A stretch of DNA of 64,000 nucleotides, from contig CAYSEN010000001.1 of assembly GCA_964430335.1 (NCBI GenBank), forward strand, positions 1,653 through 65,652, given 5' to 3'. This stretch comes from an uncultured Candidatus Saccharibacteria bacterium (GTDB taxonomy: Bacteria > Patescibacteriota > Minisyncoccia > Phycocordibacterales > SIBU01). Numbering within the stretch: position 1 is the stretch's first letter; each line of letters begins with the position of its first letter. The notes under the pieces are model-generated. The model was not told where the DNA came from. It saw only the letters and a list, made by a program, of their open reading frames with translations, and did no database searches. The position numbers were made by a program, and so were the translations under genes. Shown one piece after another: positions 6,204 to 17,996 of this stretch.

Positions 6204-8675
6204 CTACTTACTTTTCTCCATCTCTCCCCAGTTTTCTCCAACCTTCACTTCTACCTTGCAAACCACACCCTTGGTTTTTTCTGGTGAAATCACACTCTCC
6301 ATAATTTTTTTCGCCTCTGATATAAATTCACCTTCCGCACCTTTTTTAACTTCATAAACCAATTCATCGTGCACTTGGAGCAACAAGAAAACCTTGTCAT
6401 TCAAATTGTTTTTTTCAATGTACTGGTCTGCGTGAATCATCGCGATTTTAATAATATCCGCCTCCGTGCCTTGAATCGGCGCGTTAATAGCCATTCTCTC
6501 AGCTGCCGCTCTAATGAAAGGCAACTTTGAAGAAATTCCTGGAAAATATCTTCTCCTGCCAAAAAATGTTTCAGTGTAGCCTAACTTTCTTGTCTCAGAC
6601 TTTACATCTTCCAAATACTTGGCTAGGCCGGCAAACTTTGAAAAATAATCATTGTAAAATTTTTGAGATTCTTCTCTCGTTGTCCCCTCACCCAAATTCG
6701 CCCTAAGCGCATTTACACCCATTCCGTACATGACTCCGAAGTTGATGACTTTTGCCTTTCTTCTCATGTCAGGAGTAACCTTTTCAGGAGGTACACCGAA
6801 AACCTCCGAAGCCACTGCTGTGTGCACGTCCTCGCCGTTTTTAAAAATCTCAATCAATTTCTGATCGCCCGACAAAAAAGCAGCGATGCGGAGCTCAATT
6901 TGAGAATAATCAAACGCTACAAACTGAAAACCTTTGGTAGCCACAAAAGCGTTTCTGATCGCCCGGCCCAATTCCGTCTTGTTTGGAATGTTTTGCAAGT
7001 TAGGATTTTCACATCCCATTCTTCCCGTTGTTGTTCCAGCCTGCAAAAACTGAGCGTGAAGTTTTCCGTCTTTATCCACCATTTCAGGAATCGTGTCGAT
7101 GTAGGTTCCCAAAAGCTTTGAAAGTTCTCGGTATTCCAAGATCAAAGAAATTATTGGATGGACATCTCTTAGTTTCTCCAATTCAGATTCCTTAGTAGAA
7201 AGTGCTCCACCACTAGTCTTTTTCTGATTCTTGGCCTTAAGTCCAAGTTTTTCAAACAAAATCACACCGAGTTGCTTGGGAGAGCTAACGTTAAACTCCT
7301 CGCCGGCCAAACTCCAAATTTTCTTTTCAAGTCCAGCTAATGTTTTGTGATACTCCACCGACAATTCCTTAAGACGTTCTTTGTCTATAGCAATTCCCCG
7401 CTCTTTCATTTTAGAAACAACTGGCATTAGAGGAACCTCTATGTCGTTGAAAACTGAATTTAATTTATACTCGCTGAGTCTTTTTAAAATAATCTTTTCC
7501 GCTTCTTCAAAAGTTTTAGCACCTGTAAAATTCAAAATATCATCGAGCGTAGGATTTGTGGTGTTGGAATTGACCAACCACAAAGCAATAGCCACTCTCG
7601 CTAAATCTTTTGGATCCGGCGCTGGTATCGAGCTTGCAGAAGTTGAAAATAGGTTCTGAACTGGCGCTTCATTTTTAGTCTCCACTTTGTCACCCACTTT
7701 TGCACCGTTCTCCTTAGTTGAAGTTACACTTTTTCCGGAAAGTGCCTGTGTTAATCTCTGTCCCAGATTTCTAAACTCTAAGTCTGCAAAAATCTTTACG
7801 ATTTTCCCAATTTCAATACTTTCCTTCCACTCTTTTTCTGGCAAAACAAAATCGATAGGCGCGTCTCGTCGAATAGTGGCTAGCATTTTGCTAAACTCTG
7901 CTTCTTCTTCGTTGTCCTTAAGTAATTTAATAATGCGATCAGTAAGACCTGCTTTTTTAAAAGCCTTATCATCTTTTTTTAGACTTGCGTAAATATTTTC
8001 AACAGTGCCAAAGTTTTGTATCAAAATTGAAGCAGTTTTTTCACCGATCCCTTTAATGCCGATGATGTTATCCGAAGGATCTCCTCTTAGACCTTTGTAA
8101 TCTGGTAAGAGTTTAGGCGGAAAACCGAACCTTTTAACCACAGCTTCCTCGTCATAAAGGATCGTATCTTGAATACCTTTTTTCAACGTGTAAACCTGAA
8201 CCTTTTCATCGTCGACAAGCTGGAGTGTATCCATATCTCCTGAAGCAATTATAATGTCTGTTGGATTTTCACCTTCCTTTAGTTTTGAATTTCTATCATT
8301 TATCTTGTCGACAATTGTTCCTAAAATATCGTCGGCTTCAAAACCTTCCTTGTCATACATAGGAATTGAAAACGCTTCGAACACATCTCGAGATCTTTTC
8401 ATCTGAGAAACCAACTCAGGGTCTGCTTTTGCCCTCCCTGCTTTGTAATCTTTGTAAGCCTCGTGTCTGTAGGTCGGCTTTGGTAAATCGTACGCCGCCA
8501 CAATATAATCCGGTTTTAAATCAGCGATAATTTTTATTAACATGCTAGCAACACCATAAAGAGCGCCGGTAGGTTCACCTTTTGAACTGCTAAAGTCAGG
8601 TAGAGCATGATAGGCTCGATGCAATATCGCGTGAGCATCAAGTAACACCAGCCTTTTATTGTCATTTTTGGACAT
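6204..8675 (-). CDS. polA: DNA polymerase I
   Basis: 5'-nuclease N-terminus (LLDAHAILHRAYHALP). Pol motifs A (DYSQIELRI), B (RRKAKVINFGVMYGMG) and C (QVHDELV). Confidence 0.95.
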   Translation of the reverse strand: MSKNDNKRLVLLDAHAILHRAYHALPDFSSSKGEPTGALYGVASMLIKIIADLKPDYIVAAYDLPKPTYRHEAYKDYKAGRAKADPELVSQMKRSRDVFEAFSIPMYDKEGFEADDILGTIVDKINDRNSKLKEGENPTDIIIASGDMDTLQLVDDEKVQVYTLKKGIQDTILYDEEAVVKRFGFPPKLLPDYKGLRGDPSDNIIGIKGIGEKTASILIQNFGTVENIYASLKKDDKAFKKAGLTDRIIKLLKDNEEEAEFSKMLATIRRDAPIDFVLPEKEWKESIEIGKIVKIFADLEFRNLGQRLTQALSGKSVTSTKENGAKVGDKVETKNEAPVQNLFSTSASSIPAPDPKDLARVAIALWLVNSNTTNPTLDDILNFTGAKTFEEAEKIILKRLSEYKLNSVFNDIEVPLMPVVSKMKERGIAIDKERLKELSVEYHKTLAGLEKKIWSLAGEEFNVSSPKQLGVILFEKLGLKAKNQKKTSGGALSTKESELEKLRDVHPIISLILEYRELSKLLGTYIDTIPEMVDKDGKLHAQFLQAGTTTGRMGCENPNLQNIPNKTELGRAIRNAFVATKGFQFVAFDYSQIELRIAAFLSGDQKLIEIFKNGEDVHTAVASEVFGVPPEKVTPDMRRKAKVINFGVMYGMGVNALRANLGEGTTREESQKFYNDYFSKFAGLAKYLEDVKSETRKLGYTETFFGRRRYFPGISSKLPFIRAAAERMAINAPIQGTEADIIKIAMIHADQYIEKNNLNDKVFLLLQVHDELVYEVKKGAEGEFISEAKKIMESVISPEKTKGVVCKVEVKVGENWGEMEKSK

Positions 8676-9213: not shown

Positions 9214-9789
9214 TTATGGGCCAACTCGGTACCGCCTGATGGGCCCGGGACCATTGAGGTCCCGGATCTCCCGGATTCCTCCGGGAGATCCCCAGTAACG
9301 GTACCCTCCAGGGGGCGTGGGTGGTTCCCAACTGTATCCAGGAACCGTACCACCCTGTGGAAGCACGACCGGGACAGCTGGTGGTGTCATGACAACACCT
9401 TGAGGTGGCTGGGACCAAACCTGCCCTGGAGGAGGCGTGGCCCAGCTTCGCTGGGGACCAAAATTGAACTGTCCGTTCGATCCTGCTTGCGCCTGCTGTG
9501 CAGACGCAAGCCCGTTGGTGCGAGCGTACTCATGCTCACGACGCTCGTACTCCATCTTCACCATCGCCTCCTCGTGTCGGAGGCGTGCCTCCTGCAGTGA
9601 CCGGACATGCCGGTCGTATTGCTTGCCGCCATTTTCTAGCACCCTCTGTTCGGGCTCTTGCCCAAACTGATAGGGGCCCTGTCCACGAACGGCGCGGACG
9701 TGCTCGACCCGTGGGGTCGACGAACAACCGGCGAGAAGTACGGCCATTGTGGCGACGATGACCGAACCGATGAATTTAAAGGTCTTCAT
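9214..9789 (-). CDS. lipoprotein, Pro/Gly-rich C-terminal half, high-GC (foreign composition)
   Basis: Signal peptide with lipobox VLLAGC. 38/60 G+C at 9301-9360 against ~35% in neighbouring genes. Overlapping ORFs in other frames are shadow ORFs. Confidence 0.7.
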   Translation of the reverse strand: MKTFKFIGSVIVATMAVLLAGCSSTPRVEHVRAVRGQGPYQFGQEPEQRVLENGGKQYDRHVRSLQEARLRHEEAMVKMEYERREHEYARTNGLASAQQAQAGSNGQFNFGPQRSWATPPPGQVWSQPPQGVVMTPPAVPVVLPQGGTVPGYSWEPPTPPGGYRYWGSPGGIREIRDLNGPGPIRRYRVGP

Positions 9790-12078: not shown

Positions 12079-13158
12079 ATGTCAAGAAAGTCTAACACAA
12101 AACGAGCAGAAAATGACTCCGAAGAAAACAACACACCTGATGAAAAAACCATAAAAGACAAGGTTTTTTCGGACGATGAAGGTTTTTTAGATCAAACTCT
12201 AAGACCAAGTCATTGGGACGAATATATCGGTCAAAAAAATATTAAGGAGAATTTGAGGATTCTTTTGACCGCTGCCGCTGAAAGAAAACACCCGCCGGAG
12301 CATCTTTTGTTTTACGGCCCTCCAGGATTGGGAAAAACTACCCTCGCCCACCTCATTGCCAAGGAAATTGGTGCACAAATCAAGATAACTTCAGGACCTG
12401 CCATTGAAAAAGTTGGAGATTTAGCATCCGTACTTACAAATTTGTCACCAGGAGACATTCTTTTTATCGATGAAATTCACCGTCTCAACAAAGCTATCGA
12501 GGAAGTGCTATATCCAGCAATGGAATCTGGTCAGCTCGACATCATAATCGGCAAAGGTCCATCAGCCCGCACAATCCAACTTGAACTTCCTCCTTTTACT
12601 CTAATCGCCGCAACTACACGCATCGCACTTCTCTCTTCCCCGCTACGATCACGCTTTGGCGGAGGAGTTTTCAGACTCGAATTTTATTCTGATGAAGAAA
12701 TAGAGGAAATTGTAAAAAGATCTGCAAAAATTTTAGGAGTGGCGGTAGAAAAAACCGCCTCGCAAGAAATTGCCAAGAGAAGTCGTTTCACTCCAAGAAC
12801 TGCAAACTATCTTTTAAAACGAGCCCGAGATTTTGCTCAGGTGAACAAAGGTGATCTTACAAAAGAGATCGTTGATAAATCACTAGCACTGCTCGGAATC
12901 GATGAGCTTGGACTTGGGCACTCAGACAGAGCGCTTCTAAATACACTTATAGAAAAATTTAACGGTGGCCCTGTTGGACTAAACACTTTAGCAGCAGCTC
13001 TTTCTGAGGAGCAAGCAACCATAGAAGAAGTTCATGAACCCTACCTTCTCCAACTTGGCCTGATCGAACGCACACCGAGAGGACGTGTCGCATCCGAAAA
13101 AGCATATCGTCATCTCAAAATCTCCGTTCCAAAAAATCTTCAAGAAAAGCTCCTGTAA
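12079..13158 (+). CDS. ruvB: Holliday junction branch migration ATPase RuvB
   Basis: LLFYGPPGLGKTTLAHLIA, Walker B ILFIDEIHRL and other RuvB-specific motifs. ~30-aa charged N-terminal extension. Confidence 0.95.
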   Translation: MSRKSNTKRAENDSEENNTPDEKTIKDKVFSDDEGFLDQTLRPSHWDEYIGQKNIKENLRILLTAAAERKHPPEHLLFYGPPGLGKTTLAHLIAKEIGAQIKITSGPAIEKVGDLASVLTNLSPGDILFIDEIHRLNKAIEEVLYPAMESGQLDIIIGKGPSARTIQLELPPFTLIAATTRIALLSSPLRSRFGGGVFRLEFYSDEEIEEIVKRSAKILGVAVEKTASQEIAKRSRFTPRTANYLLKRARDFAQVNKGDLTKEIVDKSLALLGIDELGLGHSDRALLNTLIEKFNGGPVGLNTLAAALSEEQATIEEVHEPYLLQLGLIERTPRGRVASEKAYRHLKISVPKNLQEKLL

Positions 13159-13165
13159 AACAGCC

Positions 13166-13208
13166 AAAATAAAAGCCGCCGCGACAAGGTCGCGGCGGCT
13201 TTTATTTT
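13166..13208 (+). terminator. intrinsic terminator after ruvB
   Basis: aaaataaaagccgccgcga-caagg-tcgcggcggcttttatttt. Confidence 0.85.
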
Positions 13209-13482
13209 TGTGTGCCGAAGAGAGAGATTGCGATCCAAAAAGGTTGAACCTTTTTGGATCTAAACACACATTTCACTCTGCATTTTGTGGGCTTGTGACC
13301 AGCATCAATCTCAAAGTTAAATATTTAGAATGATGGCTGCATTAAAATGTGGAGAATTTTCATCCAGCACAAATCACTTTGTGATGGATTAACCCTAAAT
13401 CGAAACTTGAGATTCTCCCGAACTCACGCTTCTCTTAACCTTCGCGGACTTTTATAAGGAGGTCCGCACCCCGTGAAATAGA

Positions 13483-13791
13483 TCAACCGCCTTGGCTGAC
13501 CCATCGCTTGGCGGCATCAAGAGCCTCTCCAGCGTTCTCGAAACAGACAATGTCCGTTTCGTTGTGCCAGAACTTAATCTGGTCTGTGGCGTTCGCCAGC
13601 GCATCCAGCACCTCGGCGTCCGTCACTATTTTTCGAGTCGGGTGTAAACCCCGACCGAAGAAGCGTTCGAAACAACCTTCGGAACCTCGAACGCCTGAAA
13701 TCTGGAATGTTCGGTCACCAACCTTCCATTCCAGAGATTTCCGATTCCCCTCCACCCAAATGCGGAGGAGGGCTAGTTGTGTGGTGTTCAT
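13483..13791 (-). CDS. hypothetical protein (high-GC island gene e)
   Basis: 102-aa ORF with island composition, same strand as the other island genes. No motif recognised. Confidence 0.55.
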   Translation of the reverse strand: MNTTQLALLRIWVEGNRKSLEWKVGDRTFQISGVRGSEGCFERFFGRGLHPTRKIVTDAEVLDALANATDQIKFWHNETDIVCFENAGEALDAAKRWVSQGG

Positions 13792-13816
13792 AATGAACAG
13801 GGTGTGGGGTAAAGCC

Positions 13817-14197
13817 CTACACCAACGAGATCAGACAGACCTCTTTTTCCGTCATGTCACCCATACACCCGTAAGGGCAGTGGCCCTTTGGGGTGACATC
13901 GTAATCGTAGGAGATTCCAATGTTGCCGCAAATGCAGCAGCCTCCTCCTGGGACCCACCACACACCGGCGATGGGTTGAAAAACTCCCGTAGGAGTCAGA
14001 TAGGCCAGGAGTCCTTCGGATTCCTGGCCGCTATAGACAAGACGCTTTTTTGCAGCGTCTAGCACGGGGACACACTCTTCCCCCTGTGTTACTGAGCCGT
14101 CGGCCCAGTAACAGACGTAGCGAGGAATCTCGTTCCTCGCCTGAAGAGAACGAAGCAATGCTTCGATCTCTTTTTTTGATTTTGTTGAACTACTCAT
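13817..14197 (-). CDS. hypothetical Cys-rich protein (high-GC island gene d)
   Basis: 126-aa ORF with clustered cysteines (GGGCCICG, HCPYGCMG). No family recognised. Confidence 0.55.
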   Translation of the reverse strand: MSSSTKSKKEIEALLRSLQARNEIPRYVCYWADGSVTQGEECVPVLDAAKKRLVYSGQESEGLLAYLTPTGVFQPIAGVWWVPGGGCCICGNIGISYDYDVTPKGHCPYGCMGDMTEKEVCLISLV

Positions 14198-14285
14198 AGA
14201 ATTTCATTTTCGAAAAATCAAAAACAAAATTCTATGAGTAGTGCTGAATACTGTCTTTAGATTTACCAACGTTTTGATAAACCCA

Positions 14286-14335
14286 ATAAACAGGAGAAGT
14301 TGTAACCGCAACTTCTCCAAACCTAACGACAATTT
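14286..14335 (-). repeat. island hairpin element, copy 1 (terminator-like)
   Basis: 10-bp stem ggagaagttg/caacttctcc with a 6-nt loop. ~50 nt near-identical to 16058-16109. Confidence 0.85.
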
Positions 14336-14481
14336 TTTCTCGGGATAGTCGTCCTTCCCATGACACTGCATGTCAGGCCACACCATTTAGAACGGTGGCA
14401 ACTTTCCAGCATTTTTCATGCCGGACTTTTACGCACTTCTGTTACGAAGGTGGTGCGATCCTTCGGATGTCTTTCCATCAG

Positions 14482-14805
14482 TCAGAGAGTGACGCGGATA
14501 GCCACAACCTCGTCGTCCGCACTGCATTTGAATATACCAAGTACCTGTTCAAGGCCGTTTGTGCGACGTTGAAAGTCTTGGTCATCATTTGCATTGTGAC
14601 GATTGGTGGCATTTTCATGCGCAGTCTTCGGGAAAAAACAAACGCAATAAACGCTGTCGTTCCAAAAACCTGAACATGAATCCTCATCACTCTCTCCCTC
14701 CAAAATCGCTTCTGGCACATAAGTGAAATCAAATGTACCGAAGGTATTTCGAGCAATCTTTATTGCCCGAATGATCTCAGAGGGATTAAGGCTAACTTCC
14801 TTCAT
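14482..14805 (-). CDS. hypothetical protein (high-GC island gene c)
   Basis: ATG at 14805 is preceded by GGGAGGAGAG at 7-nt spacing. The ORF-track version extends to 14874. Confidence 0.55.
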   Translation of the reverse strand: MKEVSLNPSEIIRAIKIARNTFGTFDFTYVPEAILEGESDEDSCSGFWNDSVYCVCFFPKTAHENATNRHNANDDQDFQRRTNGLEQVLGIFKCSADDEVVAIRVTL

Positions 14806-14923
14806 GGAAGCTCTCCTCCCACTTTTTTCACTGAAGTGGCAAACCGTCGAATGCAGTTCCGCCAAACAGCTCACGTTTTACGATAGGCAGTGAGGGCCTT
14901 TGAGAGACTGACGGTCTCTCAAA

Positions 14924-15853
14924 CTACTTGAGGTACTTCGTGAGCACCTCAACCACCCGCTCGACTGAAAGGGTCGAGCTGACACCCTGAGGGCTTCCGC
15001 CGATGGTCGGGGAACCTCCCCAACCCGGCTCGAGGGTCGCCAACTCGGCGAGCGCGGACTTGATGTCCGCGTACTTGCTGGCCTCGAAGGCGCAGATCGT
15101 GAACTTCCGGTGGGGCTCTCCCGCCCCGAGCCGAAAGCTCGGGTTGAGCGCCACCACGACCGGCGCCAGCGCATAGCCAACCGACGTGGCGGCGCGGTGC
15201 GTCGACTCGACGACCGCAATGCACCCGCCGGCACAAACCTCGTGCCGAATCGCTCCGCTCTCAAGAGCGGCGATCATGTCGGCGCGCTCGCGCTCAACCT
15301 GAGCGCGATAGTTGCCCGGCTCCTCGCCGGTCAACAACCACTTTTCCATAGTGGCGACCCGCTCCCCGAGTGGGATCTTGAAGTCCGCAACCGCCGCCGC
15401 AATCGCGGCGAGCGGTCGGGACGATTCGGCCCCTGCCGAGCTATCGTCCCACGGGCTGCCCCGGGTCGGGAGGGGTTTCGGGCCGGTGTACCCGCCACGT
15501 GCGAACTTGTCGGCGGCGGCAACCATACTGATCCGATCCATCGCGGACTCGAGACCTTCGCCCTTCGCCCGGATGTTGAAGATCGCCATCGCCCCAACAC
15601 TGTCGAGGTCGGCTCGCACAGTGACCAATGTCGCCCTCTCGGCCGGGATCTCTACCGTCAGCGCGGCCTCGATGGCCGAGCTGTTGGCGTCTCCTTCCGA
15701 TCCGTGCTGGGGGTCGAGGTTGTACACGCACCGAGCCGCAAGGCTCGGGACGGTCACCTCGATTCCGAACACCTGCCCGGACGAGAAAACCTTCTCGTTC
15801 GCCTCAGAGGCGGCCGGAAGATTGCGGGGATCCAGAATTGCAAAATGAAACAT
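14924..15853 (-). CDS. hypothetical protein, 309 aa (high-GC island gene b)
   Basis: Longest island ORF with sensible amino-acid composition, whereas overlapping frames are Arg/Pro/Gly-rich shadow ORFs. ATG at 15853 preceded by AGGTGA. Only a loose DHH/DHHA1-like motif spacing (RADLDSVGA ... GWGGSPTIGG). Confidence 0.65.
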   Translation of the reverse strand: MFHFAILDPRNLPAASEANEKVFSSGQVFGIEVTVPSLAARCVYNLDPQHGSEGDANSSAIEAALTVEIPAERATLVTVRADLDSVGAMAIFNIRAKGEGLESAMDRISMVAAADKFARGGYTGPKPLPTRGSPWDDSSAGAESSRPLAAIAAAVADFKIPLGERVATMEKWLLTGEEPGNYRAQVERERADMIAALESGAIRHEVCAGGCIAVVESTHRAATSVGYALAPVVVALNPSFRLGAGEPHRKFTICAFEASKYADIKSALAELATLEPGWGGSPTIGGSPQGVSSTLSVERVVEVLTKYLK

Positions 15854-16057
15854 TTTGTAATTCACCTATCTTCAAACAAAAGCAAAAAAATGTGACTATT
15901 TTGGTACACACTTATTTTGTTCTCACAAAACGCGGGTTTCTAAGTCGCGAATTGTGCCTGAATCGGATTTGTCGACAAGTGAGCGGGGGTCTAGACTGTC
16001 CCCATTCACCTGTCGAAACCAATTCGTGTCTACAGACTGGCAAAATTTGTCAGCCTG

Positions 16058-16109
16058 ATAAACAGGAGAAGTTGTAACCACAACTTCTCCAAAACCCGTG
16101 CGACAATTT
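16058..16109 (-). repeat. island hairpin element, copy 2
   Basis: Same stem as copy 1, with one loop difference (taacca vs taaccg). Flanks ataaaca... and ...cgacaattt are conserved. Confidence 0.85.
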
Positions 16110-16158
16110 ATCCATTTTGTGGAATAGGAAGTCGCCCTTCCTTTGTTGTTGGTCTGGA

Positions 16159-16557
16159 CTAGCGATATGTTGCATCTTTCCAGACTGTAAAACTACGACC
16201 TTCCGCGGTCGTAGTTTCGATGATCTGGTGACCGGGAGCTTCCCCGGTCTCAGCCAGAACCTCCTCATCCAGGCATTCCATCCTGGATGAAAGAGTGGTC
16301 AGCCGGAGATTCCCGGCCACGGCGAGTTTCTCGAACTCGCCGTTCATCTCGCGCAACTGCGCGAGACAGTAAGCCAGATGTTCTGGCGCATCTTCGACGC
16401 CTGTAGCATCGACCGATATCTCCGGACCGCACAGGCAGTCCGGAGATGTCTCATTCAGAAAGAGCAACTGCCCCCTCCGAACGAACCACAATTTCATTTT
16501 CATAAAATTGTAAAAAGGATGGTACCGCCAGCCAACATGGCCAGCGAACAAATACAA
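16159..16557 (-). CDS. hypothetical protein (high-GC island gene a)
   Basis: ORF of 114-132 aa. Start ambiguous: TTG at 16557 or ATG at 16503 (MKMKLWF...). Confidence 0.5.
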   Translation of the reverse strand: MYLFAGHVGWRYHPFYNFMKMKLWFVRRGQLLFLNETSPDCLCGPEISVDATGVEDAPEHLAYCLAQLREMNGEFEKLAVAGNLRLTTLSSRMECLDEEVLAETGEAPGHQIIETTTAEGRSFTVWKDATYR

Positions 16558-17189
16558 TCCCTCTTTCCGGCACTAAGTAAATCTAACGCCGGAGAAGAGG
16601 AATAACATTGCGGTTATTGCTTTGGCAAAATTTGTTCCGCCTTACTCCTTCCTCTCTATTTAGTTTTCAAATTACTTCCCTACTCTACCTATCACTTTCC
16701 GCAACTCGCGGACTTCCTGGTGTAAGGACATTTTGAAGTACAAAGTGGGTTAGACTTTACACTTCATCGATGTCCTGACGAGCCTTCTCGTCGACAACGG
16801 GCGATGAGTTTACCTTAAAGGTATATCTCCGTCATTTGGAATGGGTTTCGAAGCCAGACCATATGTAGAGCACTCATCATTCGAAACGAGATATTCAAAA
16901 GGCTGCCTCTCTCCCCACTCTCTCTTCTTTCCATACTTAGCCGCTTTCGCGGAGGCTATGGGACCTTCCCTTTCGGGCTAGAGGTGGGGGGCAATCTTTC
17001 GGCTATCTCCTGAACGAACTTGACTTTCTGGCAATAGAATATCTTAATTAGATAGCGAGTGTCAATTATTTATGACATAAAATGGCCGGTTATTGCAAAA
17101 TCTAGTAACAACATGGATTTTATGGCTTATCCACATATTACTATTGTCATATACTTGTGACAAAAACAGCTTTATGCTAGACTAAAAGT
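16558..17189. other. ORF-free, hairpin-dense region with strong purine/pyrimidine strand asymmetry (candidate leader/ncRNA or island end)
   Basis: No ORF of 60 aa or more. Helices at 16725-16776, 16777-16792 and 16941-16952. 26/27 pyrimidines at 16906-16932. DnaA box at 17127-17135. Confidence 0.4.
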
Positions 17190-17996
17190 ATGGAAAATTC
17201 ATCATACGAAAAATTTTTAAGCGAGTTGGGCCTAACAAAAGAACAATCTTCCGTGTATGAAAGCCTTCTAAAAAACGGCCTTTTGCCGGCTAGACTTGTT
17301 TCCTTAAAAACAGGAATAAAGCGCAGCTTGGCCTATAAGATAATTGAACAGCTGATTGCCCTAGGTTTGGTTGAAAAAAGGGAAAATATTGGCAAAGTCA
17401 CTCTGTTCTTCCCTACCCATCCCGGAAAACTTCGTGAATTGGTCCAGAGACGCGAGGAGGAGCTGAAAAAGGCGGAGGCTAGCCTCGGTGGAATTATGGG
17501 CAAAATGGTTTCGGATTTTAATTTACTTTCAGGAAAGCCAAATGTTCAATTCTATGAAGGAATGGACGGTATGAAAAAAGTTCTTGAAGACTCTTTGACT
17601 GCGGAGGGTGAGATTTTGGCTTACTCAGATATTGTGGCGATACAAAAATACATACCCGAAGTAAATGCTGACTACGTTGCGAAAAGAAGAAAATTTGGTG
17701 TTAAGAAAAAAGGTTTGATATTTGATTCTCCAGAAGCTAGAAAAATACTAGAGGGTTACAATCCTGACATTACTGAAAACAAATTCATTAAATTTAAAGC
17801 TGATCCTTCAAAAACAATTATGCAGATATATGACAACAAGATTTCATATATCACTCTTAGTGAAAATCAAATGATAGGCGTTATTGTGGAGGACAAACAA
17901 ATCGCTTCACTGCACAGAAACCTATACGAGTATCTTTGGAATACTATTCCGCAAGACGGCTCATCTGCGTCGGTCGCGAAAAAGTTTGAAGATTAG
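17190..17996 (+). CDS. TrmB-family HTH transcriptional regulator
   Basis: N-terminal winged-helix pattern LGLTKEQSSVYESLLKNGLLPARLVSLKTGIKRSLAYKIIEQLIALGLVEK. Confidence 0.65.
   Translation: MENSSYEKFLSELGLTKEQSSVYESLLKNGLLPARLVSLKTGIKRSLAYKIIEQLIALGLVEKRENIGKVTLFFPTHPGKLRELVQRREEELKKAEASLGGIMGKMVSDFNLLSGKPNVQFYEGMDGMKKVLEDSLTAEGEILAYSDIVAIQKYIPEVNADYVAKRRKFGVKKKGLIFDSPEARKILEGYNPDITENKFIKFKADPSKTIMQIYDNKISYITLSENQMIGVIVEDKQIASLHRNLYEYLWNTIPQDGSSASVAKKFED

Follow-up and report, generated by a model that had tools for sequence, protein, structure and literature searches.

This report concerns a stretch of intergenic DNA in an uncultured Candidatus Saccharibacteria bacterium and the structured RNA of ≈470 nt that it is predicted to encode. 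The DNA analyzed, hereafter called the window, comprises 64,000 nt of contig CAYSEN010000001.1 (GenBank assembly GCA_964430335.1, positions 1,653–65,652 of the forward strand). Its average GC content is ≈38%, and its genes are typical of Patescibacteria (polA, tsaE, a pilB-like ATPase gene, ruvB, yebC and ruvC). Between ruvB (12079–13158, plus strand) and a trmB-like gene for a winged-helix regulator (17190–17996, plus strand; Pfam TrmB, E = 2e-11) lies an island of up to 62% GC, in which every open reading frame (ORF) is on the minus strand and none gave a match in Pfam, PHROGs or NCBIfam. The RNA is placed between the outermost of these minus-strand ORFs and the trmB-like gene, from which it is divergent. 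Comparison with homologous loci indicates that positions 16553–17030, read on the minus strand, encode a large structured RNA that has not been described before.

An earlier note, made from the letters of the window, had singled out positions 16558–17189 as an ORF-free, hairpin-dense region with a purine/pyrimidine strand asymmetry at the edge of the island. The ORF check bore out the absence of any ORF of 60 aa or more inside these limits; a plus-strand 75-aa ORF (16378–16605) overlaps the initial 48 nt, and the neighboring island ORF is annotated in public data as 114 aa at 16159–16503, so that the true ORF-free stretch is 16504–17189. The structured RNA itself takes up 16553–17030, while 17031–17189, which the note had counted as part of the same region, is a divergent promoter and operator region shared with the trmB-like gene. 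The minus strand has a predicted folding energy of −192.9 kcal/mol (z = −5.8 relative to shuffled sequences), and folding is less marked on the plus strand (z = −4.2). As the note had observed, the GC content is intermediate: the RNA has 46.5%, between the ≈38% of the host and the island maximum of 62%. The asymmetry held in part. The plus-strand tract with 26 pyrimidines in 27 nt (16906–16932) is present and forms the purine strand of a single helix in the RNA sense, its partner being an upstream CCCCAC-CUCU strand, but the purine content of the minus strand across the region as a whole is 54.9%, within ≈0.5 standard deviations of 632-nt windows elsewhere in the sequence. The asymmetry is therefore local only.

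Homologs and secondary structure of the RNA

Homologs were collected by two routes. The conserved island protein o313 gave 38 loci, among which L004, from a Nomurabacteria metagenome-assembled genome, was the sole match at the sequence level. The window and L004 are 82% identical over the RNA, and 11 of the 69 predicted pairs differ by compensatory changes, while none is broken. The route through the trmB-like neighbor, unlike that through o313, proved productive: all of the relatives fetched in this way, with TrmB identities from 83% down to 55%, carry the RNA upstream of trmB and divergent from it. Two covariance sub-models, R1 (domain 2 plus hairpin P12) and R2 (P12 alone), recovered the RNA at full length in four distant o313 loci (L002, L006, L013 and L014). 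R2 matched 13 loci with scores of 48–82 bits, whereas the antisense maximum was 26 bits. In total, the RNA is known from ≈15 independent loci in Patescibacteria. A sequence search of a phage collection gave no match to the RNA, pattern scans of viral contigs gave one match (L039), which was judged to be due to chance, and pattern scans of metagenome contigs gave none, the window's own sequence being likewise unretrieved. Literature searches on structured RNAs or integrons in Patescibacteria yielded no description of the RNA and nothing relevant to it. At the o313 locus L005 (4513–4680), a clear 3' domain and tail hairpin were seen upstream of o313, while domains 1 and 2 and P12 were undetected; this copy may be a diverged or truncated form of the RNA.

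The predicted pairing was evaluated on three alignments, each compared to slid controls in which the pairing was recomputed with the partners shifted. For the whole core (92 pairs), a MAFFT alignment of nine sequences, made without reference to structure, had 88.4% of its cells paired, compared to 41–51% in the controls, and 31 pairs had changed on both sides. Domain 2 and P12 together (50 pairs) were 91.7% paired in 13 sequences, compared to 41–44%, with 39 of the 50 pairs changed on both sides; this alignment was fitted to the model and is thus biased toward the model's structure, but the margin over the controls is large. The tail hairpin (19 pairs) was 97.8% paired in a MAFFT alignment of 10 sequences, compared to 46–61%, and five of its pairs had changed on both sides. 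Many G-U pairs are conserved, where the opposite strand would have A-C mismatches, and this, together with the antisense maximum of 26 bits against sense scores of up to 82 bits, shows that the RNA is read from the minus strand. The strand evidence thereby supports the note's suggestion of a minus-strand transcript in the sense of the island genes, directly upstream of the first of them.

The predicted structure begins with domain 1 (16879–17019, minus strand), a long irregular helix between a 5' pyrimidine-rich strand, GAGAUAGCCGAAAGAUUGCCCCCCACCUCU, and a 3' purine-rich strand, AGAGAGUGGGGAGAGAGGCAGCCUUUUGAAUAUCUC. It encloses two hairpins capped by GNRA loops, CCC-GAAA-GGG (16968–16977) and CCAUA...CCGC-GAAA-GCGG...UAUGG (16931–16962). 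Compensatory changes in this domain include CGAAAG/CUUUUG to CAUAAG/CUUAUG, UUGCC/GGCAG to UUGUU/AACAG, and CCCCAC/GUGGGG to CUUCAC/GUGAGG. Domain 2 (16803–16878, minus strand) has a closing helix GAUGAGU/ACUCAUC, a branched arm with the conserved loop GGC-NNNN-AAACC, and a hairpin UACCUU-UAA-GGUA. It is matched over its full length by R1, its helices 1–4 are 82–92% paired, and 21 of its 26 pairs have changed on both sides. Two adjoining hairpins follow. P11 (16777–16792, minus strand), GACGAG-AAGG-CUCGUC, is variable and absent from the more distant group, while P12 (16725–16776, minus strand) is the most conserved element of the RNA, with an outer stem AGGACAU/AUGUCCU, an internal loop CGA/AA, a 13-bp inner stem and the invariant loop (G)UCUAACCC(R)C; 17 of the 21 pairs of its helices 6 and 7 have changed on both sides. 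P11, P12 and CCGC-GAAA-GCGG (16941–16952) are the three hairpins that the note had read by eye, and they were found exactly as given and are kept in homologs through compensatory changes.

The 3' domain (16608–16724, minus strand), identified by alignments and nhmmer, consists of a hairpin CCGC-GAGUU-GCGG, a purine-rich linker with the conserved UUUGAAAA...AAAUAG, and a hairpin GCGGAAC...CCGC. The last conserved element is the tail hairpin (16553–16607, minus strand), a terminal 19-bp hairpin UGUUAUUCCUCUUCUCCGGC...GCCGGAAAGAGGGAUUGUA. In the relatives L004, L041, L047, L050 and L040, a second hairpin with covarying arms follows the tail; it was not seen in the window. This hairpin shares, or competes for, the GGGAU bases of the tail, and L004 and L041 alone have a U run after it. 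In L049, inspection by eye of the stretch from the RNA to the first gene's start codon revealed no hairpin with a U run; rather, the structured region appears to extend up to the ribosome-binding site and start codon of that gene.

Some homologs carry insertions within the RNA gene. The insert in L004 (2066–2344) lies in a loop of domain 1, antisense to the RNA, and that in L048 (128–385) lies in the 3' domain in the RNA sense; each contains a GIY-YIG endonuclease gene, and the inverted repeat (C)CAGCACUAACUUU / AAAGUUAGUGCUGG(G) forms the ends of the inserts. Short inserts without a gene were found in L040 (≈1240–1330) and, in two copies, in L045 (≈6500–6620 and ≈6850–6950). Those of L040, L045 and L048 occupy the 3'-domain position, where such insertions are optional in relatives, and are all bounded by inverted repeats. 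The inserts are copies of a small mobile element with the inverted repeat (C)CAGCACTAACTTT / AAAGTTAGTGCTGG(G), which resembles a miniature inverted-repeat transposable element when it lacks a gene and sometimes encodes an endonuclease of 85–92 aa, and which is found at differing peripheral positions of the RNA in either orientation.

The promoter region and the cassette array

A consensus scan identified a sigma-70-type promoter for the RNA at 17036–17065 on the minus strand, with a −35 box TTGACA (17065–17060), an 18-nt spacer and a −10 box TATTCT (17041–17036). In the eight aligned loci and in L049 and L050, the −35 box is invariant and the −10 box is TAYYMT, giving the general form TTGACA-N17/18-TAYYMT. 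From this arrangement the RNA would start near 17029, at CCAGAAA, which includes a conserved CAGA. The trmB-like gene is the constant neighbor of the RNA wherever the upstream flank of the RNA could be read, with homologs of 55–83% identity, and it is also upstream in L002, L006 and L014. Between trmB and the RNA promoter is the palindrome TTGTCATATACTTGTGACAA (17144–17163), of the form TTGTCA-N8-TGACAA, which overlaps the likely trmB promoter and whose half-sites TGTCAC/GTGACA are kept in the eight aligned loci and in L049 and L050. It is likely to be the operator of the TrmB-like protein, and could also control the RNA promoter ≈80 bp away. The same divergent region contains a perfect match to the DnaA-box consensus, TTATCCACA (17127–17135, plus strand), between the trmB and RNA promoters; TGTGGATAAG is invariant in the eight aligned relatives and has one or two mismatches in L049 and L050. 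The GC skew at this box gave no sign of a replication origin. The 10-mer direct repeat that the earlier note had described as bracketing most of the region does exist, but its copy at 17087 falls where relatives show no conservation, and we therefore treat it as chance. Genes of the 23S-rRNA-intervening-sequence/bAvd four-helix-bundle family were seen near the RNA locus in L043 (11934–12293) and L045 (7532–7909 and 12051–12413), and one of those in L045 sits between trmB and the RNA.

On the other side of the RNA, DNA homology with the closest relatives (L040 and L046) ends at ≈16550, at the base of the tail hairpin, and beyond it the genes differ completely even among close relatives: Csx3, NDK, MJ1673, a DEAD helicase, an HD hydrolase, the DHH-like o313 and many orphans. 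Because the RNA is kept while this cargo changes, it belongs to the backbone. The earlier note was right to place the feature at the island edge, but on these comparisons the RNA is the conserved backbone border of the island and not a part of it. The cargo genes run in the RNA sense over at least 7 kb in most loci, the exception being a single short ORF called on the plus strand in L045. The cargo of most arrays has a GC content of 50–65%, compared to 38–45% for the host, with the small array of L050 as an exception; one possible source of the cargo genes is a high-GC donor or host. Several cargo products (DHH-like, Csx3, NDK and HD_4) act on nucleotides or nucleotide signals.

In the window, the first cassette gene (16159–16503, minus strand) encodes the 114-aa orphan mentioned above, whose sole database match was itself and which gave no match in Pfam, PHROGs or NCBIfam. 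It is followed by the first of two copies of an element that we call the junction element. Copy 1 (16026–16151, minus strand) consists of a hairpin GGAAG-GGCGA-CUUCC, AAAUUGUCGCACGGGUUUU, a hairpin GGAGAAGUUG-UGGUUA-CAACUUCUCC (16065–16090) and then UGUUUAUCAGGCUGACAAAUUUUGCCAGUCUGUAGAC; it was matched by nhmmer with E = 5e-31 and is terminator-like by consensus scan. Copy 2 (14251–14385, minus strand; nhmmer E = 8.5e-32), with its hairpin at 14293–14318, lies between the cassette genes 14482–14874 and 13817–14197. The two copies share a 36-nt repeat that is 97% identical. A separate inverted repeat of 25 nt, 88% complementary, was observed at 14189–14242, across the start codon of the cassette gene 13817–14197.

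Junction elements of ≈90–130 nt occur in the spacers between cargo genes, with one to five copies per locus. They are confined to cargo, always in the cargo sense and nearly always intergenic, although one match in L045 overlaps a called gene start. With nhmmer we obtained 23 matches in the window and eight loci (21 without two duplicate rows), and more were found in L030, L049, L050 and L052. The core has a constant order: GGGUUWY, a 10–14-bp stem usually starting with GGAGAAG, the loop (U)GGUUA, the return strand, and YYUUAUYRGGCU. Covariation is seen in the stem, where 8 of the 11 pairs differ on both sides, and the loop is fixed; the percentage of pairing is partly circular, since the aligned copies were chosen for having a stem. 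Read by eye, the hairpin is followed by a −35/−10-like stretch CTGACA...TAGAYA. The junction elements do not share the 10–20-point GC excess of the cargo (window 13200–16550; L041, L043, L045, L047 and L052).

Clustering of the cargo proteins gave eight families, which recur in differing orders (for example, F4-F3 and F3-F4). The gene next to the RNA differs everywhere, except in two near-identical loci, and may be an orphan, Csx3, a member of a 268-aa family, an 89-aa protein or a 310-aa protein. A distal family, F1, is common to four arrays; in the window it is represented by o102 (13483–13791, minus strand), which by tblastn and clustering is also in the arrays of L041, L045 and L004/L052. 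In the distant relatives L049 and L050 the arrays are minimal, with just one or two genes and a single junction element after the RNA. Since even these keep both, the RNA and the junction element travel together.

The cassette gene o313 (14924–15853, minus strand; 309 aa) is predicted to encode a divergent DHH/DHHA1-like phosphoesterase. It is very conserved and GC-rich, with more than 600 homologs at 45–75% identity, mostly from Patescibacteria, and no Pfam model; outliers include the actinobacterial isolate Nesterenkonia flava (L019), at 57% identity. The motifs NLDPQH, DKFARGG and GWGGSPxIGGSPQG are invariant. The AlphaFold2 model has a pLDDT of 86, and the best Foldseek matches to it were phosphoesterases of the DHH family, namely a PAP phosphatase, RecJ2 and DhhP, all weak (E ≈ 1e-3). 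A role for o313 as a recombinase was ruled out by this DHH/DHHA1-like predicted fold. No match to o313 was found in plasmid or phage collections. The gene is often near a trmB-like gene (loci L001–L038), even where the RNA was undetected; the idea that the RNA travels with o313 was dropped, the RNA being present at 5 of the 38 o313 loci. Elsewhere in the window, a second local GC peak (51%) at 9214–9789 on the minus strand coincides with an ORF for a putative 191-aa lipoprotein. It had faint spanin- and lipoprotein-like matches, is overlapped by other long ORFs, and may be another foreign gene.

Relation to known RNAs and gene-capture systems

Searched against Rfam 15 (4227 models) at the gathering threshold, the window yielded four tRNAs only. 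At E ≤ 10, the RNA regions of the window, L047 and L050 gave scattered matches at chance level with no family in common, so the Rfam scan that the earlier note had named as a possible refutation returned no family that would explain the region. ARAGORN found no tmRNA, and no gene for a reverse transcriptase, TnpB/IscB, an IS110 recombinase or an integrase adjoins the RNA. Identities as RNase P, tmRNA, an intron or a transposon guide were rejected, as no models matched and no fitting genes were nearby. For a group I intron in particular, the RNA is intergenic with its own promoter, there was no Intron_gpI match, and the GIY-YIG ORFs lie in separate inserts, at two loci and in opposite orientations.

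In size and complexity, the RNA is similar to the large ornate RNAs ROOL, GOLLD, OLE, raiA and HEARO, whose functions are unknown or have begun to emerge only recently: like them, it falls in the range of 400–600 nt, has many helices, GNRA loops and strong covariation, is restricted to a lineage, and is linked to variable or mobile regions. Its sequence and structure match none of their Rfam models. The known large RNAs have as neighbors prophage tRNA clusters, oap genes or IscB, whereas the neighbors here are trmB and a cassette array. A different parallel is with the RNAs of processive antitermination, such as put of phage HK022 and EAR of Bacillus, which act in cis and are 70–120 nt long. 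In layout only, the RNA resembles these as a 5' element on a long transcription unit with several internal terminator-like hairpins; it is ≈470 nt long, however, and has no similarity to the put or EAR models.

The arrangement of the array as a whole most resembles that of an integron, a platform made up of intI, attI, the Pc promoter and cassettes bounded by attC sites. As in integrons, a fixed head with an outward promoter and a divergent gene is followed by co-oriented, mostly unannotatable genes, with a recurring imperfect palindrome between them, and the arrays are mosaic, with the position nearest the head the most variable. However, the divergent gene is here a TrmB-family helix-turn-helix regulator instead of an integrase, and no integrase family was found among the called genes in 12 loci, nor was a tyrosine or serine recombinase found next to the array. 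Core pairs of the attC type (RYYYAAC...GTTRRRY) numbered 0 on either strand of 13150–16600, compared to 0.47 expected by chance. The junction hairpin has a short perfect stem and a conserved loop, whereas attC is long and bulged; the head is a structured RNA of 470 nt, for which integrons have no counterpart; and cassette movement is presumed. The architecture is thus integron-like, but the array lacks the parts that define an integron.

Two other systems share some of these features. Arbiol and co-workers reportedly described, in 2010, promoter-early stem-loop (PeSL) elements as "mobile regulatory cassettes" in the hyperplastic regions of T4-type phages. These flank novel ORFs with a conserved stem-loop and possibly a promoter, and as repeats could shuffle genes by recombination. 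The junction element likewise combines a hairpin with a −35/−10-like stretch, whose promoter activity is a prediction; in contrast, the present arrays are chromosomal, belong to Patescibacteria, are headed by a large RNA, and had no match in phage or plasmid collections. In islands integrated at tRNA or tmRNA genes, too, a hypervariable region of foreign composition adjoins the 3' end of a structured RNA gene. Here, however, no integrase was found, the cargo is co-oriented and punctuated by repeats, and neither the tail nor the 3' domain had a second copy anywhere in the window or the other loci, the far border of the island included, with a single tail match per locus.

Possible roles of the RNA

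The three roles suggested in the earlier note, a long leader, a stand-alone non-coding RNA (ncRNA) and the recombination end of the island, are all among the readings that still stand. Our best explanation, which we put forward tentatively and at less than even probability, is that the RNA is the fixed head, or structured 5' leader, of the cassette-array transcript. Transcription would start at the RNA's own promoter, divergent from the trmB-like gene, and the RNA would act in cis as a structured 5' leader, setting how far RNA polymerase reads into and along the hairpin-punctuated cassettes. The means could be attenuation at the tail hairpin or conversion of the elongating polymerase to a terminator-resistant form. 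A junction element with a terminator-like hairpin closes each cassette or small gene group. The leader role is suggested by L049, where the structure appears to run up to the first gene, and by L004 and L041, where the hairpin with its U run competes for GGGAU. The 3' hairpin would also mark the site beside which new cassettes enter, so that the head-proximal position would turn over fastest; that new genes enter beside the tail hairpin is probable because this position is the most variable.

Several points weigh against a leader of this kind. Both the ends of the RNA and the read-through into the cassettes are ones that we infer from sequence. On the minus strand of the window, a promoter-like TTGGCT-17-TACAAT at 16507–16535 stops 4 nt short of the first cassette gene's ATG (16503), and this gene may thus be transcribed independently of the RNA, as a leaderless mRNA. 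Junction elements may have promoters of their own, which would make a common leader unnecessary. A U-run terminator directly after the tail is clear in 2 of ≈9 lineages and is not present in the window. The RNA was detected at 5 of 38 o313 loci, and arrays or their genes also occur without a recognizable RNA copy. No recombinase was found to explain the insertion of cassettes, and at 470 nt the RNA far exceeds the known antitermination RNAs in size. Finally, the P12 loop UAACCC is complementary to the GGUUA loop and GGGUUA 5' flank of the junction elements (16065–16090 and 14293–14318), and in L049 and L050, with P12 loop UAACCA and junction motifs UGGUUA, the change looks compensated by eye; but an unbiased scan for 6-mer complementarity performed no better than with shuffled RNA, and we therefore do not claim loop–loop pairing.

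It is also possible, if doubtful, that the RNA is a stand-alone, trans-acting ncRNA, either with a housekeeping role or as part of a ribonucleoprotein, whose gene merely borders a recombination hot spot, much as tRNA and tmRNA genes flank genomic islands, and has no functional link to the cassettes. It has a strong conserved promoter of its own, in L004 and L041 a terminator-like hairpin and U run come right after its tail, and it has been kept despite the turnover of the adjacent genes. Its peripheral loops tolerate large inserts, including GIY-YIG genes, as do ribosomal and other essential RNA genes, and the lack of significant complementarity between its loop and the junction elements would likewise fit a separate function. 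A bystander gene would less readily account for cargo co-oriented with the RNA over at least 7 kb in most loci, for a junction element that accompanies the RNA even in distant minimal arrays, or for the structured region of L049, which seemingly reaches the start codon of the first gene. Nor do the array genes include an integrase, and the 3' end of the RNA is unrepeated at the far side of the island.

A reading at the DNA level, in which the locus is a fixed recombination site analogous to attI, a recombinase from another locus acts on the tail and junction hairpins, and the RNA structure is of secondary importance, we consider unlikely. What it explains well is the break in homology exactly at the base of the tail hairpin, and it predicts, through insertion at the head, the observed pattern of a most variable head-proximal gene and a shared distal one. 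The conserved loop and two GGTTA motifs of the junction element, about two helical turns apart, resemble protein-binding sites, and P12 has the same motif in inverted orientation. However, a multi-helix structure of ≈300 nt with strand-specific G-U pairs and GNRA loops exceeds what a recombination site needs, the conserved promoter argues for a transcript, and neither canonical attC core pairs (13150–16600) nor an array-adjacent tyrosine or serine recombinase was found.

A bolder idea, that the locus is an integron-like platform of a new kind for the capture and expression of genes, is in our view just as improbable. In such a platform the 470-nt RNA and the TrmB-like regulator would form the head in place of an integrase and attI, and the RNA would take a direct part, either by directing or licensing the insertion of cassettes at the 3' hairpin, or by controlling how all of the cassettes are expressed or processed through the GGUUA-loop junction hairpins.

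Less probable again is a riboswitch-like leader that senses a ligand or factor and regulates the first downstream gene by transcription attenuation. Where a second hairpin follows the tail, the two share GGGAU, which, with the U run in L004 and L041, would be the classic layout of antiterminator and terminator, and the RNA is upstream of the first gene and in the same sense at every locus. But the first gene differs at nearly every locus and the first genes have no function in common, which removes the usual ligand logic; in addition, the RNA is two to three times larger than known riboswitches, and the riboswitch models of Rfam were unmatched. Lastly, a highly diverged form of a known RNA (RNase P RNA, a group I or II intron, tmRNA, ROOL/GOLLD/OLE, or a transposon omega or bridge RNA) is very improbable, for although the size and multi-domain fold are typical and GIY-YIG genes occur inside loops, as in group I introns, the three divergent representatives matched no family among the 4227 Rfam models at E ≤ 10, ARAGORN was negative for tmRNA, there are no flanking exons and no adjacent TnpB, IscB, IS110 or reverse-transcriptase gene, and the GIY-YIG genes sit within distinct inserts that have inverted repeats at their ends, occur at two sites and can take either orientation.

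Taken at the level of sequence, the RNA is a new family of large structured RNAs for which a promoter, a secondary structure and search models are now defined, the junction element is a new family of intergenic repeats, and the cassette-array architecture is previously undescribed in Patescibacteria. Any function of the RNA, including that of a structured leader of the array, is one that we infer. Bacteria have few large RNAs with an intricate fold, and every new class to date has opened up new biology, such as ribozymes, RNA-guided enzymes and RNA cages. The present one comes from the candidate phyla radiation, where genomes are tiny and non-coding sequence is expensive to retain. The conservative reading still yields two testable items, an RNA family and an intergenic repeat family. 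If it is true that the RNA controls or builds the array, it would show how these symbionts gain accessory genes, and express them, when the classical integron machinery is lacking.

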